Source: Candidatus Poribacteria bacterium (lineage in GTDB: Bacteria; Poribacteria; WGA-4E; WGA-3G). From it: a stretch of 64,000 nt of DNA. The number at the start of each line of letters is the position of its first letter. Position 1 is the stretch's first letter. Where the stretch lies: contig JAJEET010000039.1 of NCBI GenBank assembly GCA_022820835.1, positions 702 to 64,701 of the forward strand, read 5' to 3'. A program made the translations under genes and the position numbers. The notes under the pieces were generated by a model. The model searched no databases and was not told where the DNA came from. It saw nothing but the letters and a program-made list of their open reading frames with translations. Positions 18,093-37,857 of the stretch are shown piece by piece.

Positions 18093-18120
18093 TTGACAAA
18101 TTTCCTTTTTCGGTTATAAT
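18093..18120 (+). promoter_or_regulatory. Consensus sigma70 promoter at the head of the AT-rich island
   Basis: TTGACA at 18093-18098, a 16-nt spacer and TATAAT at 18115-18120, about 80 nt upstream of the first island ORF. Confidence 0.55.
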
Positions 18121-18567: not shown

Positions 18568-20283
18568 TTGAACGAATTACTACAACAAATCTTTAATCTT
18601 GAAACCCCAATTGGTAGAACCATTGTCTACTGGATTCGTATATTCTTTTGGGTCGGTGTTGGAAACTACATTTGGCATTTAGGACGGTTAGGATATGAAT
18701 ATATCTGTCTTAAATTTGTTCAAATCAAAATCAAAAGGGGTCTTGATGTTATATCTCCTGATTTACTCAATCGGTTAGCTAAATCCGTAGTCATCCGTAC
18801 AGGTATTAGAGTAAGTATTATTTACCGGCGAATTCATGATCTGGGTAAAATTAAGCAGAACGGCGGTGAAATTGATCATAATGTCCTCGGTGACATCCAT
18901 GCAGGGGCAACCAGCAGAAAGGCAGGTTTATCGAACTATATCCTCGGTATTCTTATTATCCTCGGTTTAGTTGGGACATTGTGGGGATTAACGACGGCAG
19001 TTATTGAAGTCCAACCGCTTTTGCAAGACATTGATGACCTTGACCAATTGCCCCAAATTTCACGTGCCCTACAGGAAACATTAAAGGGCATGGGCACCGC
19101 ATTTAAAACGACGTTAGCAGGTTTGGTAACATCACTCGGTTTGGGGGCTTTGGGATGGCTTTTTAGTCTTTTAAACTCGGCTTTTCTCACCCAGTTTGAA
19201 ACAGTTGTAGCCACAGAAATAATTCCGCCTTTCAAACAAACCCCAGAGTCATTAATTGAATCCTCTGTAGATCAACTTCAGGTAAGTGTTGGCGAATTTA
19301 AGTTAGCAACGGAAGACAATGTTCGGAGAATGCAGGAATCAATTCAACAATTAACAGAGAAGTCATGGGATGCCTATCTGGAACAACAATACGTCATCGC
19401 AAATGAGTTGCGTGAGATTCCAGGAGAACTTCGTGAAAGTTTAGGCGGAATAAGTGAATATCAAGTCCTGATTAAATCCACGGTGGCATCTTTTGAGAAA
19501 ATGACTGAGAATTTCATGACCGAAATCTCAAAAAATCAATCTGCTGTGGATACTATGGTTGAAGAATTTAGGACATTAACAGAGAAATCCATGTCTCAAG
19601 TTTCGGAGTATCAAGCAGCACTACTTGAAGGTTTAGAAAATGTCGTATCAGAGTTTAAAGAAGAAAGTACGGAATTGAAAACGACAATTCGTGATGCTCA
19701 GAGTTCGCAAGCAAAATTTATTGACGAGCTTGCTAACAACCTTGCTGGCATTCTTGAGAAACAGTTTCAACCCATTGTAGAAAATCAGCAAGATATGATG
19801 GAAGGACTCCGTGTAACGGTTATTAATATACGCCAAATTGCTGACGAGTTACAGATACGGTCTGCTCTTGAGAAGCAGAACGAAGTTTTTGAGAGCATCA
19901 AATCAGAGTTGATACAAAATCAGCAGGAAATGCGTAATAGACTATCGGAATTAATAAGTAAACTTCAAATTATACCTGCTCTTGAGGCACAGAATAAAGT
20001 TTTTGGACGGATTGAAAGTCATCTGGCAGGGCAACGTGACTTGGTCGATAAGCAGATAGAAATAATGCAAACATTAGATAGCAGTGTGAACCGGCTCCAA
20101 CAAACTTTTTCAAAAACAGAATCGGATGAGCAGCAACGTACAGAGCAAATGTTACAGCAGCTCAGGCTGAATTTTGTCGCGCTCAGCGAGAAGATGGATA
20201 CATTGAACCATACAATGAGCAAGCCAGGTTTATATCGTTGGGGATCGGAAATTCGCCGTTGGTTTGGTGTTTTTCGCAGGTAG
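18568..20283 (+). CDS. MotA/ExbB/TolQ-family channel protein with a C-terminal coiled-coil tail of about 350 aa (ZorA-like architecture)
   Basis: Three TM segments. MotA_ExbB-like signature LGILIILGLVGTLWGLTTAV ... LKGMGTAFKTTLAGLVTSLGLGALGW. The remainder is heptad-rich and Q/E-rich with an internal repeat (ALEKQNEVFESIKSEL / ALEAQNKVFGRIESHL). TTG start with GGAG 10 nt upstream. Confidence 0.75.
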   Translation: MNELLQQIFNLETPIGRTIVYWIRIFFWVGVGNYIWHLGRLGYEYICLKFVQIKIKRGLDVISPDLLNRLAKSVVIRTGIRVSIIYRRIHDLGKIKQNGGEIDHNVLGDIHAGATSRKAGLSNYILGILIILGLVGTLWGLTTAVIEVQPLLQDIDDLDQLPQISRALQETLKGMGTAFKTTLAGLVTSLGLGALGWLFSLLNSAFLTQFETVVATEIIPPFKQTPESLIESSVDQLQVSVGEFKLATEDNVRRMQESIQQLTEKSWDAYLEQQYVIANELREIPGELRESLGGISEYQVLIKSTVASFEKMTENFMTEISKNQSAVDTMVEEFRTLTEKSMSQVSEYQAALLEGLENVVSEFKEESTELKTTIRDAQSSQAKFIDELANNLAGILEKQFQPIVENQQDMMEGLRVTVINIRQIADELQIRSALEKQNEVFESIKSELIQNQQEMRNRLSELISKLQIIPALEAQNKVFGRIESHLAGQRDLVDKQIEIMQTLDSSVNRLQQTFSKTESDEQQRTEQMLQQLRLNFVALSEKMDTLNHTMSKPGLYRWGSEIRRWFGVFRR

Positions 20284-20310: not shown

Positions 20311-20973
20311 ATGGACCTTCGGATGCGTCAAAATTCTGCTTTGAACGTGTGGCCCGCTTTTACCGATGTTTCCATCGCGATGCTGCTCATCTTTATATTT
20401 TTTCTTTTCATTCAATTTGTTTCCAACAGCAAGTTGATTTTGAAAATCCGAATGGAGAAAAAGCAGGACACGATACAAGAAGCTTTTGAAAAAAGGTTTG
20501 CCAATGAAATAAAAAGAGGTATTATCTCTATTGAACGGGATGGCAACCTGCAGCGATTTATGTTTAGTGACCGAATCCTATTTAAAACTGATGAGGCTGT
20601 CCTCCAACCGCTTGGAAGGTCTACACTCACTGCTGTTGGTCGGTTATTACAGAATTACAAAACGGACGAGAAGGGGCAGCAGTTGTATCAAAGTATTCAA
20701 ATTGAGGGACATACGGACAATGTCCCTATTATGTCTCCAGACCGTTCAAACTGGGAGCTGTCATCAGATCGAGCGATTGCCGTTTTACGTCTTTTTGTCG
20801 ATCATATTGGCATTGATCCGCGAACGCTAAAGGCAACAGGTTATGCAGAATTTCGTCCTGCTGCAGGTGATAGTTCTAATATAGAAGGTGCTAACAGTAC
20901 CGAAACGAAACGCGCGAAAAATCGCAGAATTGAGATCGTTTTAGTCTATTCGGAAACGGAGGGGAACAGGTGA
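20311..20973 (+). CDS. MotB/ZorB-like protein: N-terminal TM with conserved Asp plus OmpA-like peptidoglycan-binding domain
   Basis: WPAFTDVSIAMLLIFIFFLF resembles the MotB TM (Asp codon at 20365-20367). OmpA-like motifs are IEGHTDNVPI, SNWELSSDRAIAVLRLF and NRRIEIVL. Confidence 0.85.
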   Translation: MDLRMRQNSALNVWPAFTDVSIAMLLIFIFFLFIQFVSNSKLILKIRMEKKQDTIQEAFEKRFANEIKRGIISIERDGNLQRFMFSDRILFKTDEAVLQPLGRSTLTAVGRLLQNYKTDEKGQQLYQSIQIEGHTDNVPIMSPDRSNWELSSDRAIAVLRLFVDHIGIDPRTLKATGYAEFRPAAGDSSNIEGANSTETKRAKNRRIEIVLVYSETEGNR

Positions 20974-22352
20974 GCGTTTGTCCTTATGCAAATACGAGTG
21001 AGGTATGTGGCCTGCCAGCAGTAAATACGGATCAGGGCAGTATAGTTGCTTATTGCCAAAAGTGTTCTGAGGTTATTTTTCGATGTGCTTCGGGGCATTG
21101 GAATCGTGCTTTTGCGCGTTATTGCACACAATGTCGTCAAGAACTTGAGAAACCTGCACAATGGGGTATGGCTTCGGCAAATCCGCAACGCACCGCAACA
21201 CTGCCCCACATATCTTCTGTTGATGCTCTGAATCGTGATTACGGTTTCAATACTGGGGTTGTAAATATCCCTAAGATGAACGTTGATGGAGATTTGCCCG
21301 GAATCCTTGTGATTGATGGATTGATCGTCGTCCCGAATCCTAATGAAAAAAAATTGGATGCCTACACAATAGCGAATCCATTCGATCAGAGGAATCTTAA
21401 ATTGAAGTGGAGTATCTCTTACGATGAGGCGTTAACTTATGGGGCAACGCCAGTTTATCATGGGTTCCATCTATACTATGTTAGTTCGGCTGGTATTCGG
21501 CGACAGCCAGTTGTTGGCGGAGAAGTAAAACCTGTGGAATTGAATGATGTAACTTCCGCACCTATTCAACCTACTCCGAAATGCGCCCCACTGAAATGTT
21601 ATATCAATAGAAGTCCAACAATGATTGTTGGCTTGGAGCAAGGTGTGCTACTCTTAGACCTTGTAAATAATGAAAGTAACTATATTGGGCACAAATTTTT
21701 CAGCGAAAACACGGTGATGTCGCCCGTTCAGTGCCGAGAATATATAGTTTTCACTACACTTCAGGGACAAATCTTTACGCTTAACATGAATATGATTGGT
21801 GATAAGATGGTACCGCCAAAGGTGTATCGGGATATATCTTTCTCTGCTCCCATTTCGTTAAGCGGGAGGGTTTATTTTGAGGCTTTAAGCGGGAGCGGCA
21901 ACCGGAGCCTTGCATGTTTCGATCCGAGTTCGGGCAAATTGTCTAAAGTAATAGAAATGGACAACGACCCAGAAAGCAATTTTGAAAATCGCCAAGTTCT
22001 TTTCACACACCCTCCACTTACTGATGGAAACCGATTGTTTGTGTCTGATAGGTATGGAAAGCAGGTTTATATCTATGATATCGAAGATGGTTATTCATCT
22101 AAAAGAAGTTTGCCGCAAAACGATGTTCGATATATGTTTGCTCCGCACCTATCTATCGTTGTGAATAACCGAATTTATTCTCCGACTTCATACGGTTTAA
22201 CTACTCTGGATCTTACACAGAATTATGCCGCCGGACATCGATCATTGGCAATGGGGATGCCACCGGTACCGAAACCGATTGCCCGCCCTGTTCGGTATGG
22301 TGATAAATTGTTTATTTTATGTGAAGATCGACTACTGTGTCTCGGTTGTTAG
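20970..22352 (+). CDS. Double zinc-ribbon protein with C-terminal PQQ/BamB-like beta-propeller
   Basis: The GTG start overlaps the upstream stop (GTGA). The N-terminus has Cys pairs CPYANTSEVCG...CQKCSEVIFRC...CTQCRQEL. It is followed by repeated strand motifs (LIVVPN, HLYYVSS, YIVFTTLQGQIFTLN, GRVYFEAL, NRLFVSDRYGKQVYIYD, DKLFILCEDRLLCL). Confidence 0.6.
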   Translation: MSVCPYANTSEVCGLPAVNTDQGSIVAYCQKCSEVIFRCASGHWNRAFARYCTQCRQELEKPAQWGMASANPQRTATLPHISSVDALNRDYGFNTGVVNIPKMNVDGDLPGILVIDGLIVVPNPNEKKLDAYTIANPFDQRNLKLKWSISYDEALTYGATPVYHGFHLYYVSSAGIRRQPVVGGEVKPVELNDVTSAPIQPTPKCAPLKCYINRSPTMIVGLEQGVLLLDLVNNESNYIGHKFFSENTVMSPVQCREYIVFTTLQGQIFTLNMNMIGDKMVPPKVYRDISFSAPISLSGRVYFEALSGSGNRSLACFDPSSGKLSKVIEMDNDPESNFENRQVLFTHPPLTDGNRLFVSDRYGKQVYIYDIEDGYSSKRSLPQNDVRYMFAPHLSIVVNNRIYSPTSYGLTTLDLTQNYAAGHRSLAMGMPPVPKPIARPVRYGDKLFILCEDRLLCLGC

Positions 22353-22366
22353 GAGGTCGATTTATA

Positions 22367-24286
22367 ATGGAATACTTAATAAGTGTTCAGAGACATATTT
22401 TTTTTGTAATAGTTTTCCTTGTTTTGATGCTATTCTTGCCAGCAGCACATGCCAAACATATTATAGTTGTTTACGATGTGTCTGGTAGTATGATTGGCCT
22501 TAAAATTGGTGGGAGAACAGAAGTCTATATGGAGTCCGATGATATACGTCGGGTTAACGATTATTTGGTAGGTCTGCTATTTACGGATACGTCGCAATCT
22601 TTGCGTGATAGCAATGACACACACATTGAGGAATGCAAAGCTACGTTCGTCGGTAAACCTCTCTACCAGAGCGGTGATGTACTCACTTATGTCGAATATG
22701 CAAAACAAGGGAAGATAAAAATAAACAGATCAAAGGTATCTCGTAACGAATTTCAACGGCAGCTGCCAAACCCGATAAACCTAAAATCATCCTTCCCTGG
22801 GTTGGTTTCTTACTTGCTGCGCGCAGAGGTTGAGGTGTATGACGAATTATACCGTAAGGATGACAATGAAACGTATTGGGTCTTTGTAACGGATGGTGAT
22901 ATTGATAATAGTGGAAAAAGCGATCCTGGCATAACTACAGTCTTACAACGACAGGCAGCAATTGAAAAGGAATTTTATTCGCCACTAATATTGAGTCTTT
23001 TTGTTAACAATCATGTTAAAATTGAAGTTAGACAACTTCAAAAACGGGACGACATCAAGTCAATTTTTATTGCGACTCCAATAAAACCAAAACAGCCAGT
23101 GCGAAAAATACAACTCTCGAGAAATATGGAAGGGCAGTTTTTCAGTGAAACCTTAACTATTGACACGGAGAATTCCGCAAAAACGAAATTTAAACTCAAC
23201 AGTGTCGGTGTAGAAGTTGTTGATAAACACAACAGACCTCTTCAAATTGTGACTGAAGATAATGGATTCGGTGTGCTTGAAGTTCCGCCTATTTTACTTA
23301 ACGAAAATTCACCACCGTATGAATTTCAAATACTGCTTTCCGCACATCCAGAACTTGCTGCTCCCGGCAATGCGTTAAAACTTGAGGTCATATATAACTA
23401 CAATGGTAAAGATGAAGTCTACTCAGCCCCGCTGATGAACTATACAGCAGTTATTGACAGTATCTATGTTGCCACGCTTGAAGAGCCTGATCATCCGACA
23501 AAAAAGTTAGATATCGTTTTTTCTGAAGGTAAATATAGCCAAGCGTTGACTATTCAGAGTGAGAGTCCAAACATAGACGCGTTCCAAATCGGTGAAATCC
23601 GTTGTCAAATTCAGTATAAGGATACCCGTAAACTTTGCGATGTGACTGTGCCTCAAACAATAAAGCGTTTGGGTGAATCTTTTAACTTAGAAGTACCAAA
23701 AGAAAACCGTTTGGATTGGTATGGCAACAAAGTTGTATTTGAAATTGATTATCAATATGAGGGCGATACCAAATCAACTACGATTCAGATGCCCTTTAAA
23801 GTCCGAGGTGGTGGAACAGGTTTCCCAATGTGGTTGCTTTGGGTTCTAATTGCTATTCCTTTAGTTGGCCTTGTTTTACTATTGGTTCGCCAGATAAAGC
23901 CTATCCTTGTTCCTCCTCTACCTGTCTATCATGTTGCGTTAACCGAAGTGGGCGAAGGGGGCACTGAATTAGGGGAAACAAAATATGTTATATTTAAGGA
24001 CAAGGCTACACTTGAATTTGGGGCGCGTGGTTCCAATGAATCCCGTTTTGATGTTGGAAGTGAAGCTTTCTTGTACTGCGACAAGAAAAATATCATACTT
24101 TTTACTGATGCTGACGACGACGAAGGACAAATATTAGATTTACCAGAAACAATAACGTTGATTCGAGATGAAGATGATGAAGTCTGCGTCCGTTGTGAGA
24201 TAGTAGACGATACCTCTGACGAATCAGAGGAGGAGCGATCTATTATTGACGCGAATCCTTCTAATGATGACCCGCTTGGTGTATGA
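22367..24286 (+). CDS. Secreted von Willebrand factor A (vWA) protein with a single TM and an acidic cytosolic C-terminal domain
   Basis: AGGAGG RBS lies 10 nt before ATG 22367. Signal peptide ...LFLPAAHA, then the MIDAS motif IIVVYDVSGSM (22475-22492). TM segment FPMWLLWVLIAIPLVGLVLLLV. The C-terminal domain of about 125 aa ends in a D/E-rich tail ...NDDPLGV. Confidence 0.8.
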   Translation: MEYLISVQRHIFFVIVFLVLMLFLPAAHAKHIIVVYDVSGSMIGLKIGGRTEVYMESDDIRRVNDYLVGLLFTDTSQSLRDSNDTHIEECKATFVGKPLYQSGDVLTYVEYAKQGKIKINRSKVSRNEFQRQLPNPINLKSSFPGLVSYLLRAEVEVYDELYRKDDNETYWVFVTDGDIDNSGKSDPGITTVLQRQAAIEKEFYSPLILSLFVNNHVKIEVRQLQKRDDIKSIFIATPIKPKQPVRKIQLSRNMEGQFFSETLTIDTENSAKTKFKLNSVGVEVVDKHNRPLQIVTEDNGFGVLEVPPILLNENSPPYEFQILLSAHPELAAPGNALKLEVIYNYNGKDEVYSAPLMNYTAVIDSIYVATLEEPDHPTKKLDIVFSEGKYSQALTIQSESPNIDAFQIGEIRCQIQYKDTRKLCDVTVPQTIKRLGESFNLEVPKENRLDWYGNKVVFEIDYQYEGDTKSTTIQMPFKVRGGGTGFPMWLLWVLIAIPLVGLVLLLVRQIKPILVPPLPVYHVALTEVGEGGTELGETKYVIFKDKATLEFGARGSNESRFDVGSEAFLYCDKKNIILFTDADDDEGQILDLPETITLIRDEDDEVCVRCEIVDDTSDESEEERSIIDANPSNDDPLGV

Positions 24287-27800: not shown

Positions 27801-28344
27801 CAGTGTTGAAGTTGAATTGGACGCGTATTTTTCACAGGTTAGTTCCGGTGCACCTGAGGAAGCTCTACGCAACGAAGCGGAGCAGGAACCACCAGAGCAG
27901 ACCGAAAATATAAGGAGTGAAAGTGCCGCGGATCAAACTACAGACACAGATGACTACGAAGAGGAAACTTCTGAACCAGAGGAAGTGGGACATGATGTCG
28001 GCACCGTGAACCAGCCGAGATATACAAATAGCGACAACTATTACGAAGAAAGTGTAGATTCTGAGGAAACGGATTCATCGTCCGAAAATACGCTATCCAC
28101 AGAAGTCAACGAAGACGAGATTGTATGGAGTGAAGTTGAACCTGAAGCGGATCCCAGTTCCGCAGAAGAATTTACTGAAGAGGTTATGATCAAAGAATCT
28201 TCTTCAGAGCAACAGTCACAGCCAGAAGTTGTCCCTGGAAACGTTAATCAGGATAAACAAACACAACCCTCTAAAGAATTTTCTGTGGCTGATGTTGACT
28301 TAAAACCGATACAGCGTCGTGGGAGCACTCGTAAGAAGGAGTAA
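24853..28344 (+). CDS. Giant tubulin/FtsZ-superfamily GTPase-like protein (Tubulin_2/PF13809-type N-terminal domain) with an acidic disordered tail
   Basis: The N-terminal LFIGLGTTGTNILKEL resembles the T1 loop. VVGSLCGGSCSGMLIDVAYFL (25375-25404) resembles the T4 GGGTGSG signature. The last 160 aa or so are D/E/S-rich and end in a basic patch, RRGSTRKKE. Confidence 0.7.
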   Translation: MITPTLFIGLGTTGTNILKELRKLMSEEYGHLGLPLFRYIAIETNGEVEVQNTNQMEDYERINLISATIPTVIPIRHKLTPGDPLHNPQLVNWLDPELLKIEAGSFIAGASNIRMAGRLCLWENWANVQNTFSRALGAIIAPATTRQTEDILTQRKKIAGNPLDTEGAIKIYVVGSLCGGSCSGMLIDVAYFLRHLLSGYGDQSKVFGIFTIFDENHAAKPDAMCNIRAANCYASLLELNYYHHQDTTYDITFPDGRKIENMRKKPFDYTLFVSPSGKIAGNQFVKPNGSFDEEGLNLMVALNLFAESAADTGGRKDEIRTNFTSHGNFGTLKPVPQGEIRTMIRYMASFGLTAVWYPKYRIATAAACLISNKLCDDWLTSHIPQATTVKNAETEWNQILKENIDTLTNPDGQAPIKSRIETQLTLAKQQWGNKDISSYQLSQNMEGFPTGESFREKFEQGGEYVELMKMQGAECQKAFHSAIEKTLNNQLGRIDFSGAHGLHDVRIFFETLDKEIEKTIQNCPERMPSLDLRKLNFEPMGRANNSFWLKSLWLREYAVKSHQNNLIDQYCNLIIGGGTSFYESVRNYYLRPVLQEIRTKLGFGVIPSDEVGPNRPQTIKERLDKIEGNLNDCIKEFKNEYNKAINPPRSECVKIVANNSENRIDTDAATLSHQISQSDDGIDLLRGESIATFLAKERADIIAWMTETYRQLSLDQVQVDDVVTKAQNLLDSGSSDIQNLASRSNPYQMFTPTYIPFTVSDSPNIIFGQIGAVLTNLNNNLSSPELSFGVGPSSVDHLLFFYQEEAGFALDDLVAQGMLIDKFRRTPGEYGHSTHQNPDFYNLELYDKTQKIKRWCQVLARLVPEICNRIDRKAFEGVFQLDHGKYVYEYIVDGSTKWLGLRNHESGIKELSMKQNESAYHEFFNAVQSRFNRLDREKINESIIKPLLLEVENLETRNTVNSYYNRFLNEVYSNDTIVNDTASSVEVELDAYFSQVSSGAPEEALRNEAEQEPPEQTENIRSESAADQTTDTDDYEEETSEPEEVGHDVGTVNQPRYTNSDNYYEESVDSEETDSSSENTLSTEVNEDEIVWSEVEPEADPSSAEEFTEEVMIKESSSEQQSQPEVVPGNVNQDKQTQPSKEFSVADVDLKPIQRRGSTRKKE

Positions 28345-28350
28345 TCGAGT

Positions 28351-31080
28351 ATGGCAGACGTGTTTTGTTCAAAATGCGATGTCGGTTGGGTAATTTACTC
28401 ACATGATAAGCATTGCGGGTATTGCGGGTGTAAAATCTTTGATTTTGAAGTGAGATGGGAAGAAGAGCCGTTGCTTTACGTAGGTGATGGAGCGGATATC
28501 TATGACCGAACTATTTTCGTAGAAAACACTGGGGCCTATCCGATTACATTCCATCCAATTCAAACGATAAGAGATGATACAATTCTATTTCCACAGCCGA
28601 ATGACAGTCCTTTTGAAGTCAAGGCTGGTAAATTCCGCGCTGTTCCGATTCAGGTGAAATTGGCAAATTTAGAACGGGCTCACGAAGTTATCACTGTGCG
28701 AGTACAGGATGCACCATCGGATTTTGAAAACGAAAAATCATTGTGTCTTAAGACTTTGCCAGATCCTGAATTTAAACTGACTCCGGATCCTATAGAAGTT
28801 CGTTATCGAAGAGGAATAAAAAAGACAACGGTAGACCTCCACCTTGAGGTGCTGCAAGGTGAGTTTTATATCAGTGATATTAAAGTCAAACAGGGATCTG
28901 TTCTTCGTGTTGGTTATTCCAAAGACCTCCATAAAAAAAACAGCGTATCCAAAAAACTCCTGTTAGAGCTCGACTGCAACCAACTCAGTGATGAATTGAG
29001 TATGGTAAAACTAAATTTTGAAATTCGAGACTTACCTCAGCCTATTGAAAAGCGAATTGAGATCCGAAGAGAGGTAGTACCAGATCCACCAAAACTATTC
29101 GTTCCACAAATGAATCTGGACATCACACAGGATCGTACGAAAACACACATCTTAACGCTTCAGAACAGAGGCGAACGTCCGTTGACAATCCAAGATATTA
29201 TATTCAATAGTCCTTCCAATTTAGTCCAGCTGCCAGACCTTGAGTTCCCTATAAAAATTGAGAGCGGAAAACATCAGAATATTGAATTGCAGGTTTCTGC
29301 GGAAGGTATTGAACCCGAGACTTATCCCATTAACTTTAACATCAACTCCAATTGTGAAGATGCCTCAGAATATGAAGATGTCCTAAATGTAAAGGTTAAT
29401 AAGCTAGAAGAGTATCCACATTATCTCGCTATTGATTTTGGCACAACGAATTCGTGTTGCGCGTATATTGATTTGGATACATACAAACCGAAACTCATTC
29501 CGTTAGATACTAAAGCGAACCCGCCCGAAATTATGCCTTCAACAATTGTTTATCACAGTAAGCCGACGAATGGGAAAACACATCACGTCGGATATGATGC
29601 AGAGAACTTTCGAACAAGTGAAATTGACGGTCCTTATTATATCACTTCTGTCAAGCGTTGGTTAGGATATGAATGGGGACGACACTTTCCAGACAATCAA
29701 AATATACAACCCTGTGATGTGGTTGCGGATATCTTTACCCATATTATTCAACAGGCGGAAAAGTATTTGGATACTTTTACGACTCAATCAAAAGTTAACA
29801 AATGTATAGTTACCTATCCGACAATGTTTCCGCATGAGCAACGGGCGGACTTGAGACGCGCATTTGAGAAAATTGGCATTGACGATGTTATCCTCATTGA
29901 TGAGGGGTCGGCAGCTTCTATCGCAACAGTTTTTCAAAGACGTGTAAAAGACACCTCAAAGGATTATAGAATGCTTGTTTATGATTTTGGAGGTGGGACT
30001 ATTGACATTGTCCTATCGCAAGTCAGTAACAATGATGGAGAAATAAAATTTGAACCGCTTGCCAGTGGGGGAAACCCCAGATACGGTGGTGAGGATGTAA
30101 CACATGCAATTGTTAAAGATATTTTGGAAAGACTAAGTACCGAAATTCGGCGTGTAAATCCAAATCTCAGTTTTGAGATTCCTTATTTTGATTCAAGAAA
30201 AACATCTATACCTTTTGAAAAGACAAGTATTGATAGAGCAAGACTATTTAATTCAGTTATATTGTATAGTCAGGCGGAAAGGATAAAAAAAGAACTCGGC
30301 GAAAAATCAGAAACGACAGGATCTTTTCCTATAGAGGTTGTTGTTGGAAATGACACACGATCGCTTGAAAATCTAACTCAAGGCGATACTACCGTGCAGT
30401 TGTCAACGCAGCAGTTGCAGAAAATTATCAAACCTGGATTAAGTAAAACCTTTGATGATATTGACGCAATGATAGAAGCCAATGACGCCCGCTTGCCTGA
30501 CATTGTTATTCTTGCAGGTCAATCCTCAAAAATGCGTGCTGTTAAACAGATGATGCATACCCATTTCCAAAATAAGTACGGAAGAAGTGTTGACGTTCAG
30601 CTGGGGGATCCGCCTAAAGAATGCGTTGTGCTGGGTGCTGCGGAATATGGTCGGCACCATATAGTACCGGATGATGATGGGGACTGGATAAATTATGCCG
30701 ATTTGTCAAATATAACACACTCACGGTTGGGTATCGTTAAAATTAGAGGACGGCAACCGATTTTTAGCGAGATTATTCCCAAAGGGAAACGAATACCTAA
30801 TAATAGTCGGAATACGGTAGACTTTCCGCTTCGCTCACAGGAAACTTATATTGATGTCCACGAGCATTTCGGCACGGATGATGATTTGGCAAACAGTTCG
30901 CAAGTTGCCAGTTACACACTCACGTTACCAGAAAATGTAACGAAGGAAGAATTACAGAAGGCGCGTTTAGAGATGTCCATCAAAGCTGACGGTGAGATTG
31001 AATTGATTGCACTTGTAGGTGGTAAAAAATATGATTCAACTGTGAAAAAGAAGAAACCGCCATTTGTAGACAAAATTTAA
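28351..31080 (+). CDS. Zinc-ribbon + tandem beta-sandwich (PapD/ASH-like) + Hsp70 (DnaK-like NBD and SBD-beta) fusion protein
   Basis: Zn ribbon CSKCDV...HCGYCGC. Hsp70 motifs are LAIDFGTTNSCCAY (phosphate 1, from about 29419), VYDFGGGTIDIVLS (phosphate 2), VILAGQSSKMRAVKQMM and ECVVLGAAEYG. The C-terminal SBD-beta-like part reads RLGIVKIRGRQPIFSEIIPKGKRIP...ARLEMSIKADGEIELIA. No helical lid is evident. Confidence 0.85.
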   Translation: MADVFCSKCDVGWVIYSHDKHCGYCGCKIFDFEVRWEEEPLLYVGDGADIYDRTIFVENTGAYPITFHPIQTIRDDTILFPQPNDSPFEVKAGKFRAVPIQVKLANLERAHEVITVRVQDAPSDFENEKSLCLKTLPDPEFKLTPDPIEVRYRRGIKKTTVDLHLEVLQGEFYISDIKVKQGSVLRVGYSKDLHKKNSVSKKLLLELDCNQLSDELSMVKLNFEIRDLPQPIEKRIEIRREVVPDPPKLFVPQMNLDITQDRTKTHILTLQNRGERPLTIQDIIFNSPSNLVQLPDLEFPIKIESGKHQNIELQVSAEGIEPETYPINFNINSNCEDASEYEDVLNVKVNKLEEYPHYLAIDFGTTNSCCAYIDLDTYKPKLIPLDTKANPPEIMPSTIVYHSKPTNGKTHHVGYDAENFRTSEIDGPYYITSVKRWLGYEWGRHFPDNQNIQPCDVVADIFTHIIQQAEKYLDTFTTQSKVNKCIVTYPTMFPHEQRADLRRAFEKIGIDDVILIDEGSAASIATVFQRRVKDTSKDYRMLVYDFGGGTIDIVLSQVSNNDGEIKFEPLASGGNPRYGGEDVTHAIVKDILERLSTEIRRVNPNLSFEIPYFDSRKTSIPFEKTSIDRARLFNSVILYSQAERIKKELGEKSETTGSFPIEVVVGNDTRSLENLTQGDTTVQLSTQQLQKIIKPGLSKTFDDIDAMIEANDARLPDIVILAGQSSKMRAVKQMMHTHFQNKYGRSVDVQLGDPPKECVVLGAAEYGRHHIVPDDDGDWINYADLSNITHSRLGIVKIRGRQPIFSEIIPKGKRIPNNSRNTVDFPLRSQETYIDVHEHFGTDDDLANSSQVASYTLTLPENVTKEELQKARLEMSIKADGEIELIALVGGKKYDSTVKKKKPPFVDKI

Positions 31081-31136
31081 GTGGAAGTTGACATTAATCC
31101 AGTATTGATTGTTATATTCCTGACAACGGATTTCCT

Positions 31137-32387
31137 ATGCAGAAAATCGTATGTATCATTGATCTCTCCGCTATCGAAATTCAGATTGGTGTTTTCACTG
31201 AAAAGAAATTTAAAATCATCCGTCCGGCACTCCCATGGAAGGTTGGATTTCGGCAAGTAACCGATGGTACATTAGTTTCTTGTTTTGGGGAAATGTTGGA
31301 TCGACTTGATCCAGACAATCCCGCGGAAGTTCGGTTCACAGACTTGGATGTGAAATTCAAGGAAATTACAGATGAAAAAACCTTAGAATGCTTATTTAAC
31401 GCATTTTTTCAGGAGATTTTTCATCGGAGGTTATCTGAACACGAATATTCTATGGATGCTATATCGGTATATGTTATTACACCGTTCGAGTGGAAACCCG
31501 TACACCGTCAACAGTTCAGGAAAGCATTCAAGCGTTTAAATAGCAAAATGCCGGTTTCATTTCTCAAGACATCAAATGTGACACTCCGGGGTGTACTCAG
31601 CCAGATTCTATGCCTTTCTGCCTATTATCAGAAGACGTGGATTAATATACTCACAGACCCAAACAAATGCCATCTGTTTCTGGTAGATTTTGCACGGAAC
31701 GATTTTGTAGTCTATCATACGATTTGTAATCAACTGGAAGACAGTATTATAGTTGAATTAACCGATATACTGCGGTTTATTGACTTCTTTATGGATATAG
31801 ATAAAAAGGTTTCAGATGTGCAAAAGATGTTTCAACAGGTTGAGGAGGGGCAGCACGTTGCAATTGGTTTTTCTGGCAGAATTGACGATACTGCTCTAAA
31901 GTTCATTGAATTGTTGCGAGCGCGACACAGCGCAACATTTCTTGAACCGCAGGAGACCGCAACACTTTTGGGTGGGGCAGAATTGGTTAGGTACTTTGAA
32001 GAAGAAAACCTTGAAAAACCACTTCACTTTATCTATAATTATTGCTTCGGTGTGCAGTTACCTGATGGAAAAAATGTTGATTTTGTCCCAAATACATGGA
32101 CACCCCCCTATCATCGTAAAAAAGCCTTTCGTGTCACGGGGGACGTTAAAGAATTCAATGTCCATCTTTACTGCGGCTTATCCATGACGACTAACAGCGA
32201 TGTCCATCATCTCGCGACACTTAAGATTGTCCCGCGGGAGAATAAAAAATATACATTGAACAGCCCGATGGAATTTATACTTTCTGTTACCTTGAATGAT
32301 GCTACGCATGGTACATTTGCTTTACATCTTCCAAATTCACAAGGGGCGCAATCGGTTGGATTTACTATACCAGTTTTGATGGACTAA
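31137..32387 (+). CDS. Degenerate Hsp70-like paralog (predicted pseudo-ATPase)
   Basis: Collinear with Hsp70 but with eroded motifs: IIDLSAIEIQIGVF (vs DLGTTNS), LFLVDFARNDFVVY (vs DLGGGTFD), VAIGFSGRIDDTAL (vs LVGGSTRIP) and ATLLGGAELV. The SBD-beta-like C-terminus reads YCFGVQLPDGKNVDF...EFILSVTLNDATHGTFALHL. Confidence 0.5.
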   Translation: MQKIVCIIDLSAIEIQIGVFTEKKFKIIRPALPWKVGFRQVTDGTLVSCFGEMLDRLDPDNPAEVRFTDLDVKFKEITDEKTLECLFNAFFQEIFHRRLSEHEYSMDAISVYVITPFEWKPVHRQQFRKAFKRLNSKMPVSFLKTSNVTLRGVLSQILCLSAYYQKTWINILTDPNKCHLFLVDFARNDFVVYHTICNQLEDSIIVELTDILRFIDFFMDIDKKVSDVQKMFQQVEEGQHVAIGFSGRIDDTALKFIELLRARHSATFLEPQETATLLGGAELVRYFEEENLEKPLHFIYNYCFGVQLPDGKNVDFVPNTWTPPYHRKKAFRVTGDVKEFNVHLYCGLSMTTNSDVHHLATLKIVPRENKKYTLNSPMEFILSVTLNDATHGTFALHLPNSQGAQSVGFTIPVLMD

Positions 32388-32423
32388 AACCATGTTCACC
32401 ACAGGTTATACAAGGGAAACGCA

Positions 32424-33629
32424 ATGTCTTATTTCAGATTTATATTATTCTTCACATTAATACTATTGGGTTTTGTTTCAATTGGGTTTTCACAAGGAGA
32501 CGGAGACCAACTAGACATTGAACCAGTTTTATCGGAATCTCTGCTTTGGACTGTGTTAATCGTTCTCGTGATACTTGCAATCCTTGCTTTGGTCGTTTTT
32601 TTCGTTGTTAAAATGGTTAGGCGATGGAAAGCAATGTGGCAAAAAACACAGGTATTATCTACAGACATAAATCATCTTACTCATGAATTAAATGGAAAGT
32701 TGGATACTATTCAGAAAATTAGCACCGGAAACGCCAACAAATTTAAAGAAATAGAATCAATACAAGCATCAGTTCAAAAAGACCAGGAAAGTATACAATT
32801 TGATATTGGGCAAATAAGAAACTATATCAGCCAAGTTAGCACGTATTTGGAAGAATTACATTCTAATAGAAGCGTTGATGTAGATGATACAAGGGTCTCA
32901 ATTGATTATCCTCTTGAAGTGCAAAAAGCAGTCCAATCGGCAAAAAATCGGGTATTGAAAATAGCAAAGGCTTACGAAAATGGCGAACCGATGGAATTAG
33001 TTGGTGTTGATAGCCCAACACCAAGTCAGAATGTGTTGATAATTTTAAATTCAATGGCGTATGATTTAGGTGAATGGAAAGCAGAAATAGAACAATCCGC
33101 GACAGCTAATTCCGAATTTGTAGATATTTTAACAAACGCAGAAAGTGACATCAGAGATAGGCTTAAACGCATTCGCAGTAAATCTCCAATTTCGCCTATA
33201 CCTCTTGATGTAAAAACTGATGTCAACACAGAAATTGAACTGAATCATATCCGCAATCAGTGTATTGCTTATGCTGCCTATTTTGAGGGAGTGCTTACCG
33301 GATATGAACTGACATATAAGGTTGATGAGGAGGAATATAACCAATTTATTCCACAATTTATCAGGTATCGCCTGTTTAATGAGGTTGCAGATTTTGTGCC
33401 CTTTGAAGATTTGCCTGAAAAAATGGAAAGATTTTTAAGGTTTTTAGATTATGAAGTGGTTCCTATTGAAATAGAGATAACGAAAGCTGATTCACATGTA
33501 CATGATATACGGGAATCAAGGCAATCTAACGGCGAACCTGGAACTGTCATTGAGATCGTTTCCCCAGGTCTTAGGCGTATAGCAGACGGTGAAATTGTTC
33601 AAAAACCGGTGGTCATCCGCGGAGAATAA
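32424..33629 (+). CDS. Membrane-anchored coiled-coil protein with a GrpE-like C-terminal domain
   Basis: Two N-terminal hydrophobic segments followed by RRWK, then a long coiled-coil region. The C-terminus ADSHVHDIRESRQSNGEPGTVIEIVSPGLRRIADGEIVQKPVVIRG mirrors the GrpE beta-domain pattern (FDPxxHeA...gtVvev.q.GY.l.gr.lRpA.V.V). Confidence 0.6.
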   Translation: MSYFRFILFFTLILLGFVSIGFSQGDGDQLDIEPVLSESLLWTVLIVLVILAILALVVFFVVKMVRRWKAMWQKTQVLSTDINHLTHELNGKLDTIQKISTGNANKFKEIESIQASVQKDQESIQFDIGQIRNYISQVSTYLEELHSNRSVDVDDTRVSIDYPLEVQKAVQSAKNRVLKIAKAYENGEPMELVGVDSPTPSQNVLIILNSMAYDLGEWKAEIEQSATANSEFVDILTNAESDIRDRLKRIRSKSPISPIPLDVKTDVNTEIELNHIRNQCIAYAAYFEGVLTGYELTYKVDEEEYNQFIPQFIRYRLFNEVADFVPFEDLPEKMERFLRFLDYEVVPIEIEITKADSHVHDIRESRQSNGEPGTVIEIVSPGLRRIADGEIVQKPVVIRGE

Positions 33630-33635
33630 CGCACA

Positions 33636-34778: not shown

Positions 34779-35273
34779 ATGACCGCTCAGGAAAAAATAA
34801 GACTTACATGGCTCGTGAATATCGCTGTGGTATGTTTAGGTTTAGGTATTATGCTGCCGGTTATGCGAATTGATGCGAACGATGGCACTATCCGCGGATT
34901 TATCATGGCGTTTATCACACCTGGACCTTCAAGTTATTCGATTTTGAGTAGCGTCTGGGCATTGATAAAGAAAGGTATTGTCATGGACGTTATACTTGGG
35001 AGCATTATCTTTCTTTTTTCGGTTGTTTTTCCAATCTTGAAGTTAGGCGTGTTCTATCATACACTCAGTGGTGGTACACCGAACAGAGGTATTTCAGCAT
35101 TCGTTCACAAATGGGGTCGGTTTTCGATGCTTGATGTCTATATCGTCGCTATATTGATACTGACAATCAGGAGCCTCCCCGGTGGTGCACAGATTGAGCC
35201 GAGTTGGGGACTATTGCTCTTTACAATCTCGGTCGTTCTCAGCCTTTACATTTCATCACGCCTTGAGGCATAG
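34779..35273 (+). CDS. PqiA-like integral membrane protein (single-repeat)
   Basis: PqiA-family patterns: SILSSVWALIKKG, IIFLFSVVFPILKL, WGRFSMLDVYIVAILIL and EPSWGLLLFTISVVLSL. Confidence 0.6.
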   Translation: MTAQEKIRLTWLVNIAVVCLGLGIMLPVMRIDANDGTIRGFIMAFITPGPSSYSILSSVWALIKKGIVMDVILGSIIFLFSVVFPILKLGVFYHTLSGGTPNRGISAFVHKWGRFSMLDVYIVAILILTIRSLPGGAQIEPSWGLLLFTISVVLSLYISSRLEA

Positions 35274-35277
35274 ATTT

Positions 35278-37857
35278 ATGATTGATCACCTAAAAGATAT
35301 TCATCGTGTGCTATACCTACCGGCAGCACCAGAATCAGAGGAACCTCCATTCAAGGTTACCCCGATTAATGATCCCTATCTCTATACCGATGCGAACATC
35401 TATGTAGATACATTTGATAATCCGAACCAGTCTGTAAAGGTGATGGTATCAAATGTTGGTGACGGGAAGTTGCATGTTGAACGAATTCGTGTTCCTCGCG
35501 GATTTGAAAAGTGGATAAAACGGGCAGAAGGATCAAAACCTGCGACTTTGACATCAACATCAGATCCATTGGAACTTGAACTGAAACTCAACCTTAGAAC
35601 CCTACCAAATCCTTCATCGGAAAATATAGTAAAACTGAGCATCCTTTCCAATTCAAAACGCAAAACGTTTAGTGAGATATTGTTACGTGTGCAACCCCCA
35701 TGCACTCAATCTACCAATTTGACGCTCCCAGAATATATCAACTTTGGTGAGATAACTACTTATAAAGTCTCTATTGCTGATAACCGTGAAGATGCTACGG
35801 TACCGACAGCCGACTTTCTGCTCATTGGGGATTTTACGCCTTACCCTCCAACCCGTCTTGAAGTGATACAAAAAGACGAATCCTCTTTTGGTGCGAAGAT
35901 AACCACATCAAAAGGCGAATTGTCTTATGAATTGGACTTGCAGAAATCGGGAGTCGTAATGCCTCGAGAAAAAAAGACTGGAATTACACTAAAATATTTC
36001 CAACAAACTATTCCAATTCCAAATGTTACCCCACACAGATCATCAACGCAGATTTCAACATCGGATTCGGATTGGTTAGTTGTCCCACCTCAAATCCAAA
36101 CTGATGGATATGATACAACCGATTTACCTGTTTCTATAAATGTTGAAAAACTGGAAGCGGGGCGTAATGTTGCGGAGCTCGGTGTAGCAGATCAAAAAAT
36201 ATCGGTGTGGGCGTGGTATAAAGTTGTCAAAGAAACGGCATTGACGTTAGACAAGGAACAGGCAGATATCCACCATGTTGAAGTTTTCGGTGAGCAAGAA
36301 ACACCTTTACCAATTAATGTCGTATCAACAGAGGGACCGTCCCAATCCGTGATGATTTTTGAGGATTTAGATTTTCGATTTCCATTGGCAGGCAAAGAAC
36401 GGAGTAGTTATCTGATAGGCGATTTTAATCAATGGACGCCGCGCACGCTTTTTCTGAAAAAAAGAGATGACGGTTTTGGTCTTACACTGAGTGTTTCTGA
36501 AGGAACCTACCTTTATCGTGCCGAAATTGATGGCGAAATTCGACTTGACCCTACGCGGTTGGACGAGATAATCTGCTGTCCGCACGGAGTGGCATCCAAA
36601 ATACAGGTCAATCGTATTGAACAAAAGGTAACACTGCAAAACAGGTCTAAACAGAAGATAGGGTTTAAACTTCAATCTCTGACAGAATGGTTGCGTATTA
36701 AGCCTGAGACGCTTGTGCTTCCCGCAAGAAAAAAACGAGAGGTAACTGCAATAATCCGACCCGAACGCCTCTTACCAGGGCTCAATTTAGGATGGATACG
36801 GCTGGAATCGGAAAGAGAACCGATAAAGTCGTTTCTCGCTCCTGTTTATGTTATGGGTGTGACAAATGGAGCTGTCCCTATCCTCCGAAATGAAGAATTG
36901 ATTTTTCCGCAAATTGAACAAGGCAAAGTAGAGGGCGTTCCGCTGGCACTTGACATCGTTGGTGAAGGTGAATTGAAGGGTGAAGTGCAGCCGTCTACTG
37001 TCTTGCGTTTTGTAGAAGCGGATTGGCATGTTCAAAACGAGACGGCATTTGAACCAATGACAGCTGCACCACTTGTTCAAGTGTTGAGTGAAAGACCTTC
37101 TAACGCCTATCGTAAACAGGTTCGTGCGTCTCTGGTTACAGATTGTTATCTTGCGAACCGTCGTGTGCATCGTTTTGATGCCAAATATGATATGGTTCAC
37201 CTTGTCACAGAACCGCCCGCTTTATATTTTCCCAAAGTGCATCTATTTGATGATCCACAGCATGCTGATATTACGGTAAAACGCAGTGATGGTAAAGGCG
37301 ACATTGTATGTAATGTTGAAATACCTGATGCGTTAAAACAGACCGGATTATTAAGGGTTGAGAATGACGCTGAGACAAATATATCTGATCGTTGTGGATT
37401 TGTGCTTAATCCGCAGGCTGTAACGGATGCTGGACGTGTTTCTGAGAGTTTACACCTTCAGGACAAAAGGTCCGGTATGGTGCTCCCAATTCAATTCGCG
37501 GTGGATTTTGTCGGAGGTCAAGCGAAGATTGATGTTAACGCTCAGGTGAAACGCACAAATCTATCATCTGGTGGCATACCGTTAGTGATTACCAATATCG
37601 GTGAAACTGAGTTACGGATATTTGAGGTGCGATTTAAAAATATGCGGTTTTACCTCTCATCGCATCTGACTTCGCAGCAACGTACCCTTCTCCCTGGGAA
37701 ATCTATTGAGAGACTTATAAAAGTAAAAAAAACATTGAGTTTATTAGGGAAAACAACAGTTCGGGACGCGCTTATTATTAGACTCAATGATCCACAGTTT
37801 CCTAACGGAGTCTTTGAAAAGGAAATCCAAGGACATATTCCTGGTTTTAGACGTTAA
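35278..37857 (+). CDS. Large cytosolic multi-beta-sandwich protein with an AMPK-beta/CBM48-like (E-set) domain
   Basis: I place the start at ATG 35278 (MIDHLKD), 4 nt after the upstream stop. The longer ORF from 35182 overlaps the PqiA-like gene. PapD/ASH-like strand motifs are VMVSNVGDGKLHVERIRVP, VTLQNRSKQKIGFKLQS and LVITNIGETELRIFEVRF. The CBM48-like motif is YLIGDFNQWTPRTLFLKKRDDGFGLTLSVSEGTYLYRAEIDGEIRLDP. Confidence 0.55.
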   Translation: MIDHLKDIHRVLYLPAAPESEEPPFKVTPINDPYLYTDANIYVDTFDNPNQSVKVMVSNVGDGKLHVERIRVPRGFEKWIKRAEGSKPATLTSTSDPLELELKLNLRTLPNPSSENIVKLSILSNSKRKTFSEILLRVQPPCTQSTNLTLPEYINFGEITTYKVSIADNREDATVPTADFLLIGDFTPYPPTRLEVIQKDESSFGAKITTSKGELSYELDLQKSGVVMPREKKTGITLKYFQQTIPIPNVTPHRSSTQISTSDSDWLVVPPQIQTDGYDTTDLPVSINVEKLEAGRNVAELGVADQKISVWAWYKVVKETALTLDKEQADIHHVEVFGEQETPLPINVVSTEGPSQSVMIFEDLDFRFPLAGKERSSYLIGDFNQWTPRTLFLKKRDDGFGLTLSVSEGTYLYRAEIDGEIRLDPTRLDEIICCPHGVASKIQVNRIEQKVTLQNRSKQKIGFKLQSLTEWLRIKPETLVLPARKKREVTAIIRPERLLPGLNLGWIRLESEREPIKSFLAPVYVMGVTNGAVPILRNEELIFPQIEQGKVEGVPLALDIVGEGELKGEVQPSTVLRFVEADWHVQNETAFEPMTAAPLVQVLSERPSNAYRKQVRASLVTDCYLANRRVHRFDAKYDMVHLVTEPPALYFPKVHLFDDPQHADITVKRSDGKGDIVCNVEIPDALKQTGLLRVENDAETNISDRCGFVLNPQAVTDAGRVSESLHLQDKRSGMVLPIQFAVDFVGGQAKIDVNAQVKRTNLSSGGIPLVITNIGETELRIFEVRFKNMRFYLSSHLTSQQRTLLPGKSIERLIKVKKTLSLLGKTTVRDALIIRLNDPQFPNGVFEKEIQGHIPGFRR

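Follow-up and report, generated by a model that had tools for sequence, protein, structure and literature searches.

The contig JAJEET010000039.1 of a Candidatus Poribacteria bacterium (assembly GCA_022820835.1), of which a stretch of 64,000 nucleotides (positions 702 to 64,701 of the forward strand; hereafter the window) was analyzed, encodes an Hsp70 protein that is fused to an N-terminal zinc ribbon and a series of immunoglobulin (Ig)-like beta-sandwiches. This ribbon-Ig-Hsp70 fusion is real and conserved, and it is a fixed component of a conserved membrane operon of approximately 12 genes that is found in Poribacteria-like symbionts of sponges and in a few other uncultured lineages. Based on sequence comparisons and structural models, we propose, with a probability of roughly 0.6, that the protein is a system-dedicated, lidless Hsp70 that would need no J-protein and would act, tethered by its N-terminus, within an envelope system built around a tubulin-like GTPase and a stator.

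The gene for the fusion, at window positions 28351-31080 of the forward strand, is one unbroken open reading frame (ORF) of 909 codons with an ATG start. Its ribosome-binding site, an AAGGAG Shine-Dalgarno sequence located 9 nt before this start, falls among the final codons of the tubulin-like gene that comes before it; the stop codon of that gene is separated from the start by only 6 nt. A protein search returned 243 homologues at E ≤ 1e-5, a few of which are named at their source, for example as 'Hsp70 family protein [Candidatus Poribacteria bacterium]'; the best 120 of the 243 are nearly all full length (894-917 aa), with identities ranging from 53 to 100%. Since these homologues nearly all carry the N-terminal region, the fusion is not a sequencing artefact, which disposes of the concern, raised by an earlier sequence-only reading of this DNA, that a frameshift might have joined two separate genes. 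When the N-terminal 356 residues were used to search 1.84 billion representative proteins, 39 were found, mostly of the same architecture or fragments of it; about a dozen are 911-967 aa long, and an Hsp70 domain was present behind the module in all nine that were scanned. One full-length relative, from Candidatus Poribacteria, was among the matches listed in a scan of the GTDB, and no relative was detected in a scan of viral contigs.

With a score of 100.1 bits for Pfam HSP70 (PF00012) against a gathering score of 20.6, the protein belongs to the Hsp70 superfamily. The canonical motifs of its nucleotide-binding domain (NBD), IDFGTTNS (residues 361-368), DFGGGTID (545-552), LAGQSSKMRAV (721-731) and VVLGAAEYG (759-767), are each intact at the place where the sequence-only reading had found them, and the catalytic residues are invariant in an alignment of 58 sequences. 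Invariant columns of this alignment within the NBD are DFGTT (362-366), K435, E518, DFGGGT (545-550) and GQSS (723-726), K435 and E518 being the catalytic Lys and Glu equivalent to K70 and E171 of DnaK; five cysteines of the ribbon, C6, C9, C22, C25 and C27, are likewise invariant. Relatives with approximately 23% N-terminal identity still keep a CxxC...CGxCG ribbon with minor variants of spacing.

The proposed order of domains, a ribbon and beta-sandwiches followed by an NBD and a beta-type substrate-binding domain (SBD-beta) with no alpha-helical lid, was borne out by Pfam, an AlphaFold2 model and Foldseek. The model, for which the 58-sequence alignment served as input, has a mean predicted local distance difference test score (pLDDT) of 81 and a predicted template modelling score (pTM) of 0.61; the sandwich domains mostly score between 80 and 92 in pLDDT. 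All of the top 50 matches to the Protein Data Bank (PDB) obtained with Foldseek were Hsp70-family chaperones. The best alignments, of some 566-590 columns (approximately 588 with DnaK), spanned the NBD and SBD-beta and were to DnaK or BiP, full length and in the open state with ATP bound (rmsd, root-mean-square deviation, of approximately 5.4 Å for 4b9q). Consistent with this, phmmer aligned residues 639-859 to residues 232-430 of DnaK from G. kaustophilus, the start of SBD-beta included. A substrate-binding beta domain hence follows the NBD in the model, and its binding of peptides is predicted. The modelled beta domain of residues 780-900 consists of strands only, and no helices follow it; a helical lid (SBD-alpha) is typical of Hsp70s, without being strictly defining. 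As to the sandwiches, their earlier description as PapD/ASH-like, which drew on motifs such as VENTGAYPITF (residues 57-67) and LTLQNRGERPLTIQDIIF (268-285), is reasonable: a weak Pfam match to HYDIN/VesB-like Ig covers residues 259-334, and the N-terminal regions of relatives match HYDIN/VesB-like Ig, DUF1573 and MOV-10 Ig-like. The first and third sandwiches are weakly alike (domain E 1.4e-4) and the second is more diverged; sequence searches of the PDB with the N-terminal module gave no usable match. Weaker, secondary matches of the fusion in Pfam and NCBIfam were to MreB and FtsA, which share the actin fold. In four distant members of the family (P0128, P0126, P0142 and P0156), the second half of the NBD also weakly matches Pfam SrfB (PF07520, 'virulence factor SrfB'; best 3e-7).

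Sequence comparisons place the protein as a system-dedicated Hsp70 in a deep, separate clade, and not as a housekeeping chaperone. It scored 98.5 and 94.3 bits with the NCBIfam equivalog models for DnaK, the cut-offs of which are 648 and 822, respectively, and 110 bits with that for HscA (cut-off 708). For eight members of the family, identity to E. coli DnaK was 23-26% (89-115 bits), as against 55-67% (480-784 bits) for most of approximately 50 DnaK-type proteins from diverse bacterial and archaeal genomes. HscA-type proteins are approximately 45-49% identical to E. coli HscA, and E. coli HscC shares 31% identity with DnaK of the same species; HscA and HscC are specialized Hsp70s with dedicated J-proteins, HscB and DjlC, encoded as neighbors. 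In terms of percent identity, the ribbon-Ig-Hsp70 family is about as distant from DnaK as is YegD. A neighbor-joining tree (468 columns, 42 taxa, rooted on YegD, 200 bootstraps) recovered the family as monophyletic in 199 of the 200 replicates and outside the clade comprising DnaK, HscA and HscC in 193. Equivalog scores, identities and tree therefore agree that the NBD does not group within housekeeping DnaK, an outcome that the earlier reading had named as one that would overturn it.

The genomic neighborhood of the fusion was compared in ten contexts, spanning Hsp70 identities from 100% down to approximately 24% and referred to here by locus labels (L001 and so on). A Tubulin_2 gene was found directly or nearly directly upstream of the Hsp70 gene in all nine contexts with upstream Pfam calls, and BLAST recovered tubulin homologues in L004; a gene for a protein of approximately 400-430 aa follows the Hsp70 gene in all ten. 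Wherever the context is long enough to reveal it, these genes lie inside a membrane operon, with stator, beta-propeller, vWA-like, small membrane, GrpE-like and Ig-repeat proteins encoded around them. The gene order is repeated in the window's own contig (L001), in a relative of 87% identity, the right flank of which is syntenic, in two relatives of 55-57% identity with different flanks, and in L085 (41%), L084 (32%) and L096 (23%, N-terminal identity). Compared with L001, an ENA contig with an identical Hsp70, the window has small indels, namely a single base upstream of the PqiA-like gene, within the spacer, and a single codon of the Ig-repeat gene (860 versus 859 aa), and it thus derives from a near-identical but separate assembly. 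L004, from a Candidatus Poribacteria chromosome, represents a variant locus: its Hsp70 has 1164 residues (L004 positions 10001-13495), and its tubulin-like gene is duplicated (4002-9851), with the second copy split between two ORFs (287 and 561 aa). L087 and L088, the most distant loci (approximately 25% identity), keep by homology the tubulin-like gene, the Hsp70 and the CBM48/Ig-type protein, and by position the vWA-type, small membrane and approximately 400-aa downstream genes and the GrpE-like proteins; the beta-propeller gene is recognizable in L087. Both have gained a gene for a trypsin-like serine protease (L087 9034-9762; L088 16555-17523) that the window does not have, and a transposase adjoins the L088 and L096 loci.

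Directly downstream of the fusion, the operon encodes a protein of 416 aa that appears to be a second, degenerate Hsp70. The protein had no sequence match in Pfam, NCBIfam or the PDB (phmmer), BLASTP against the NBD of the fusion was empty, and the 189 homologues found by a protein search are all annotated as hypothetical. Its AlphaFold2 model (pLDDT 76) nonetheless retrieved with Foldseek only Hsp70s among the top 50 matches (DnaK, BiP, Hsc70, Ssz1 and Hsp110), at E values of 1e-13 to 7e-9 and a probability of 1.00; the template modelling scores were low, approximately 0.36, as the protein is reduced in size and differs in the orientation of its domains. At the three nucleotide-loop positions it has IIDLSAIE, VDFARND and GFSGR, meaning that the ATP loops have been lost, and the Asp in the first of these is not conserved in the family, where the consensus is N. 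The protein is thus predicted to have an Hsp70 fold and not to hydrolyze ATP. A homologue confirmed by BLAST occupies the same position in six loci, and the other contexts have a gene of similar size there.

The next protein, of 401 aa, and the one to three paralogues of it per operon (the p401 family) share a layout in which a transmembrane helix at the N-terminus is followed by a coiled coil and by a conserved C-terminus, the consensus of which is ...VGYEVVPIEIGKTKADSRxHDIQ...GTIVEVVxPGL...IVQKPVVIRGE; the window protein reads ...ADSHVHDI...GTVIEIVSPGL...IVQKPVVIRGE. Three of 13 members of the family matched Pfam GrpE (PF01025; best 1e-6), and a profile search of the PDB matched the family to GrpE of T. 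thermophilus (3a6m, E 0.014-0.027), aligned through its C-terminus. With hhalign, the family aligned to residues 133-191 of E. coli GrpE at E 0.0016 and a probability of only 16%. A hidden Markov model (HMM) was built from 14 GrpE genes adjoining real dnaK genes and run on six-frame translations of the window and eight related loci. The first 12 matches, and 14 of the top 17, belonged to the p401 family, 13 of these 14 falling at the C-terminus (best 3e-6). One of these matches, in L004, is to a domain fused to the C-terminus of the 1164-aa Hsp70, a fusion that constitutes Rosetta-stone evidence, at the level of sequence, for joint action of the two. A protein search with the GrpE-like C-terminal profile yielded only 17 short fragments. 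Taken at family level, the GrpE-like identity of these proteins is held with moderate confidence, and they are candidate nucleotide-exchange factors; compared with GrpE itself, in which a long helix leads to a C-terminal beta domain with the pattern DPxxH...G.V...GY...R.A.V, they are membrane-anchored and much longer.

The sequence-only reading had noted by eye that none of the island proteins has the HPD tripeptide of J-domains, and wider searches upheld this. No HPD occurs in the 12 island proteins, PF00226 (DnaJ) had no match in Pfam scans of the window proteins, and an HMM built from 28 DnaJ J-domains gave no match with E < 1 in six-frame translations of the 64-kb window or the eight related loci, which together made up nine loci of approximately 13-23 kb around the system. 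As read from these genes, the operon supplies a candidate exchange factor and a second, putatively inactive Hsp70, and no J-protein.

The remaining genes of the operon are listed in Table 1. All 12 island genes are on the forward strand, with short or overlapping spacers. The island, of approximately 20 kb (window positions 18000-38000), has a G+C content of approximately 41%, versus approximately 50% in both flanks; this could reflect ancient transfer or a composition specific to the system. In L002 (0.43 versus 0.53) and L004 (0.42 versus 0.52), where the flanking stretches are short, the G+C content likewise drops in comparison with the right flank. The region as a whole shows no enrichment in promoter-like sites. 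Between the site listed in Table 1 and the first operon gene, the approximately 450 nt at 18121-18567 hold no convincing ORF and may represent a long leader; Rfam and tRNA scans of the 64-kb window gave no match. Sponge metagenomes contain the sequence, in keeping with an origin in Poribacteria, and a sponge metatranscriptome includes a 10,991-nt contig from a related strain, running from the stator gene into the Hsp70 gene, along with short, near-identical contigs within the tubulin gene. The long contig is compatible with a polycistronic transcript, for which it is weak evidence.

Table 1. Coordinates in the window of the operon genes, the domains of the Hsp70 fusion and the upstream promoter-like site.
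Feature	Position	Strand	Basis
Promoter-like site, TTGACA-16-TATAAT, 12/12 sigma-70 match, ~450 nt before first operon gene	18093..18120	+	Consensus match only
ZorA-like protein of the MotA/ExbB/TolQ proton-channel family, 571 aa, long coiled-coil tail	18568..20283	+	PADLOC ZorA3, E 1.6e-11
ZorB/MotB-like protein, 220 aa, OmpA peptidoglycan-binding domain	20311..20973	+	Pfam OmpA 1.5e-13; PADLOC ZorB1 1.7e-23
N-terminal zinc ribbon (CQKC...CTQC) and probable beta-propeller, 460 aa	20970..22352	+	CxxC pairs; weak PQQ_2
vWA-like membrane protein, 649 aa, MIDAS-like DVSGSM	22337..24286	+	Motif read from sequence
Small multi-pass membrane protein, 138 aa	24391..24807	+	Position conserved in L002, L003, L004, L084, L085
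FtsZl1-type tubulin-like GTPase, 1163 aa	24853..28344	+	Pfam Tubulin_2 9.7e-44
Hsp70 fusion, zinc ribbon, aa 1-30 (C6, C9, C22, C25, C27)	28351..28440	+	Invariant cysteines
Hsp70 fusion, three Ig-like beta-sandwiches, aa 32-349 (32-133, 140-243, 255-349)	28444..29397	+	AlphaFold2; Pfam
Hsp70 fusion, nucleotide-binding domain, aa 359-768, all catalytic motifs	29425..30654	+	Pfam; alignment; AlphaFold2; Foldseek
Hsp70 fusion, SBD-beta-like domain, aa 780-909, chain ends without alpha-helical lid	30688..31080	+	phmmer; AlphaFold2; Foldseek
Degenerate Hsp70 paralogue (predicted), 416 aa, shrunken NBD-like fold and beta domain	31137..32387	+	AlphaFold2 and Foldseek
Membrane-anchored coiled-coil protein, 401 aa, GrpE-like C-terminal beta domain, candidate nucleotide-exchange factor	32424..33629	+	Family-level
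Transglutaminase/LapG-like, cysteine-protease-like protein, 350 aa	33636..34688	+	Transglut_core 0.0044; NCBIfam LapG 1.1e-4 (both weak)
PqiA-like membrane protein, 164 aa, accessory, not core	34779..35273	+	Pfam PqiA 5.9e-12
Large cytoplasmic Ig-repeat protein, ~859 aa, CBM48/AMPK1_CBM-like module	35278..37857	+	AMPK1_CBM 7.5e-5; likely ATG 35278

The first two genes encode the stator. Orthologues of the ZorA-like protein were identified in L002, L003, L084, L085, L088 and L096, and the ZorB-like protein keeps the Asp that precedes the transmembrane helix (FTDVSIAML). The zinc-ribbon/beta-propeller gene is conserved in the operon as judged by BLAST; in L087 a neighboring gene matches beta-propeller families and is tied by BLAST to the 460-aa protein through the ribbon region only. 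The 649-aa vWA-like protein, named for a motif resembling the metal-ion-dependent adhesion site (MIDAS), has an N-terminal signal or anchor, a second transmembrane helix at approximately residues 507-530 and a cytoplasmic tail; it had no Pfam match and no usable sequence match in the PDB. The gene at the same position in L087 matches VWA_2 (2.3e-5), a homology that is positional, without a BLAST match. Where the 138-aa membrane protein would be expected, L087, L088 and L096 have a gene of similar small size. The tubulin-like protein ends in an acidic and probably disordered C-terminal tail of approximately 250 aa, and a PDB sequence search with its tubulin head gave no usable match. The transglutaminase-like protein, conserved in L002, L003, L004 and L085, comprises a signal peptide, the domain, a Pro-rich linker, a transmembrane helix and an acidic tail. 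The PqiA-like gene occurs only in the window (and L001), in the 87%-identical relative L093 and, at a different position, in L004. Orthologues of the Ig-repeat protein were found in L002, L003, L004 and L085, with weaker ones in L087 and L088, and the gene at this position in L096 has a faint HYDIN-like Ig match. A PKD/CBM48 protein stands in for it in L087.

Two further observations concern the borders of the island. Just upstream, at 17585-17803 of the forward strand, is an ORF of 72 aa (MKLEQVINQDPEIHGGTPVFKGTRVPVEALIDHL...), which by eye we take to resemble DUF433-type antitoxin-like proteins. Downstream, at 38022-40790, lies a sulfur-carrier-type cluster with PALP (cysteine-synthase-like), PAPS-reductase-domain, ThiS-like and JAB/Mov34 genes that is syntenic in the 87% relative.

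Given its place in the operon, the coupling of its gene to that of the tubulin, the paralogue, the GrpE-like partners and the stator, the Hsp70 fusion would be a subunit of a machine rather than a chaperone that works on its own with a new means of targeting. The sequence-only reading was hence right on the architecture, the motifs and the lack of a J-domain in the island, and incomplete in that it missed the conserved operon context. It is plausible, as that reading suggested, that ribbon and sandwiches take the place of a J-protein: the module would keep the Hsp70 docked at all times to a partner within the complex, making recruitment to a client by a J-protein unnecessary. Binding and hydrolysis of ATP would then cause the lidless SBD-beta to release and to close on an extended stretch of a protein of the system, most likely the tubulin-like protein, the gene of which is translationally close-coupled and which has the long acidic tail. 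At the membrane, the GrpE-like proteins would reset the nucleotide state, and the inactive 416-aa paralogue may serve as a regulatory partner of the active Hsp70. The outcome would be a controlled assembly or disassembly of a tubulin-like polymer at the stator complex. The stator is ZorAB-like and probably proton-driven, within a system that would span the envelope and in which the Ig-repeat and beta-propeller proteins would be scaffolds; the vWA-like and transglutaminase-like proteins probably face the periplasm, as each has a predicted signal peptide or membrane anchor. Since these two are probably periplasmic and the stator would be bound to peptidoglycan, an event in the envelope might be signaled through the ZorA-like tail to the cytoplasmic tubulin/Hsp70 assembly, by analogy with Zorya.

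What such a system would serve may be either envelope surveillance and defence of a Zorya-like kind, or membrane remodelling. The ZorAB-like genes, the low G+C content (also in L002 and L004), the differing flanks in distant relatives, the transposase beside L088 and L096 and the added proteases point toward a mobile or conflict role. Flank synteny in the close relative, a gene order that is rigid over deep divergence, and the lack of any recognizable nuclease or toxin effector in the island point toward a stable cellular one. A broader and more tentative view, which we hold to be possible and somewhat doubtful, is that the operon encodes an uncharacterized envelope-spanning machine of stator, tubulin and J-independent Hsp70, representing a new immune or membrane-remodelling class in which the Hsp70 is hard-wired to its client.

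A number of points tell against the proposal of a tethered, J-independent Hsp70. The system is known here from genes and predicted structures alone, and both the client and the docking partner of the N-terminal module are guesses. The assignment of the GrpE-like proteins leans on paralogues, orthologues and weak profile matches (16% with hhalign), and the 401-aa protein of the window by itself was not significant with the GrpE HMM (E 2.4). The fusion has not conserved the hydrophobic linker (VLLL) that connects the domains of DnaK, and its allosteric coupling may therefore differ or its cycling be non-classical; the interdomain arrangement in the AlphaFold2 model is uncertain, as reflected in the pTM of 0.61. 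The stator genes were not seen in L087 and have moved downstream in L088. Metatranscriptome contigs can include DNA. Finally, the J-domain search covered the window and eight loci, and a generic DnaJ elsewhere in the genome is possible.

This last point underlies the most serious of the alternatives, that the fusion is a classical Hsp70 relying on a generic J-protein of the DnaJ or CbpA type encoded elsewhere, with the N-terminal module serving only for localization. In its favor, neither the catalytic residues nor SBD-beta has been lost, the partners that resemble GrpE point to an ordinary nucleotide cycle, and the visible genome amounts to only 64 kb. We regard this as unlikely: the linker through which a J-domain stimulates DnaK is not the one present here, the family is as distant from DnaK as YegD in percent identity, and the operon encodes two other classes of co-factor, the exchange factor and the second Hsp70, while no J-domain was found in any of the nine loci around the system. 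Less probable again is that the protein is no chaperone at all and forms, together with the tubulin-like protein, a scaffold as a structural or filament ATPase of the actin fold (MreB/FtsA/ParM-like). The pairing with a cytoskeletal GTPase, the secondary matches to MreB and FtsA, and the lack of both lid and J-protein would fit such a role. MreB, however, falls far below HSP70 in score (40 versus 100 bits), NBD and SBD-beta align as a whole to DnaK, no fold other than Hsp70 appears among the top 50 Foldseek matches, and a GrpE-like domain, fused to the Hsp70 in L004, would make sense only with an Hsp70-type nucleotide cycle.

There remains the reading suggested by database annotation, where relatives are called 'molecular chaperone DnaK (HSP70)' or 'Hsp70 family protein', namely that of a housekeeping DnaK paralogue which acquired N-terminal domains and has its neighbors by accident. 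It is refuted by the low identity to DnaK, scores far below the NCBIfam cut-offs, a position in the tree outside the DnaK/HscA/HscC clade and the same neighbors in ten contexts, and it retains almost no probability.

Compared with DnaK/DnaJ/GrpE, this system shares an actin-fold NBD with phosphate and adenosine motifs, an SBD-beta-like domain and a GrpE-like partner encoded nearby; unlike it, the fusion has approximately 350 aa of ribbon and three Ig-like domains before the NBD, no lid and no conserved VLLL linker, and the locus has no J-protein. The tubulin-like protein belongs to the FtsZl1 family, which was defined by Makarova and Koonin (2010; PMC2875224), who also predicted FtsZl1-vWA-OmpA operons for 'membrane remodelling' and reported that FtsZl1 is often accompanied by predicted P-loop GTPases and by protein kinases. 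The main text of that paper never mentions Hsp70, DnaK or MotA, but its Additional File 5 includes MotA/TolQ/ExbB and OmpA as neighbors of FtsZl1 in Deinococcus, a 'GrpE' of 1083 aa as its neighbor in Chloroflexus aggregans and, in a Magnetospirillum entry, a 1626-aa 'DnaK (HSP70)' after two vWA proteins (Makarova and Koonin, 2010). The window operon likewise pairs FtsZl1 with vWA-type, OmpA/MotB-family and many membrane proteins and can be counted among these operons, the vWA part being recognized by the DVSGSM motif and the positional gene of L087 only; in contrast to them, it has neither P-loop GTPases nor protein kinases, and no Walker A motif occurs in any island protein. PMC2875224 describes neither the ribbon-Ig-Hsp70 architecture nor the apparently inactive paralogue of the Hsp70 nor the fixed order of 12 genes.

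A second set of related systems was described by Kaur, Burroughs, Iyer and Aravind (2020; PMC7159879) as DO-GTPase/GAP1-N2 conflict systems, which have either a tubulin theme or an HSP70 and GrpE theme. The two themes are non-overlapping and confined to Firmicutes and Actinobacteria; the HSP70 theme sometimes includes another protein that consists of an HSP70 domain only, and the FNIII protein typically carries a fused DnaJ domain (Kaur et al., 2020). Such a system is defined by one or two DO-GTPases of the TRAFAC class together with a GAP1 protein. The window operon resembles them in combining tubulin-family, vWA-like and HSP70 proteins, GrpE-like partners and a second protein of the HSP70 fold with zinc ribbons at N-termini, beta-rich repeats and membrane-spanning components. 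It differs in having tubulin and Hsp70 together every time, in its MotAB/ZorAB-like stator and in having no DnaJ. No such GTPase domain was found in Pfam and NCBIfam scans of the window proteins, GAP1 having no public model, and identification as a DO-GTPase/GAP1 system was rejected on the grounds that the island has no P-loop protein.

Zorya anti-phage systems consist of ZorA and ZorB together with a type-defining effector, which is ZorC with ZorD, ZorE, or ZorF with ZorG. The first two genes of the operon match the ZorA and ZorB models, with the long coiled-coil tail of the former and the Asp and OmpA domain of the latter; unlike in Zorya, the other ten genes are unrelated to the known effectors. 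None of the PADLOC models for ZorC, D, E, F and G had a match in a scan of ten island proteins (all but the small membrane and PqiA-like proteins), and PADLOC called no known defence system, recognizing the ZorA- and ZorB-like genes alone; the operon was therefore not classified as a Zorya system. The combination of an active Hsp70 with a non-cycling homologue has precedents in Ssz1 with Ssb, in the yeast ribosome-associated complex (RAC), and in Hsp110 with Hsp70, the RAC requiring the J-protein zuotin. By analogy only, the window too encodes an apparently active Hsp70 beside an Hsp70 fold with degenerate loops, and structures of Ssz1 and Hsp110 were among the fold matches of both the 909-aa and the 416-aa proteins; there is no sign of common descent of the 416-aa paralogue with either, and the physical pairing would be by inference. 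A literature search, in which most subscription journals were not covered, found no description of the ribbon-Ig-Hsp70 architecture or of the operon. What is new is the combination of ribbon-Ig-Hsp70, tubulin and stator, the building blocks being shared with the FtsZl1-vWA-OmpA operons and the tubulin/HSP70 conflict systems.

The main interest of the locus lies more in the conserved tubulin-Hsp70-stator machine than in the fusion alone. To our knowledge, the FtsZl1 tubulin family has been without an assigned function since the prediction of 2010, and the operon firmly links it to a ZorAB-like proton motor and an Hsp70 module, thereby providing concrete, testable partners. As the system occurs in Poribacteria-like symbionts and uncultured lineages, heterologous expression is the realistic route to such tests. 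Hsp70s are generally thought to need a J-protein both for targeting and for stimulation of their ATPase. With a candidate exchange factor of its own, a putatively dead paralogue, a docking module and the loss of the lid, the clade is a natural test case for J-independent action, and should it behave as proposed, it would challenge the general requirement of Hsp70s for a J-protein.

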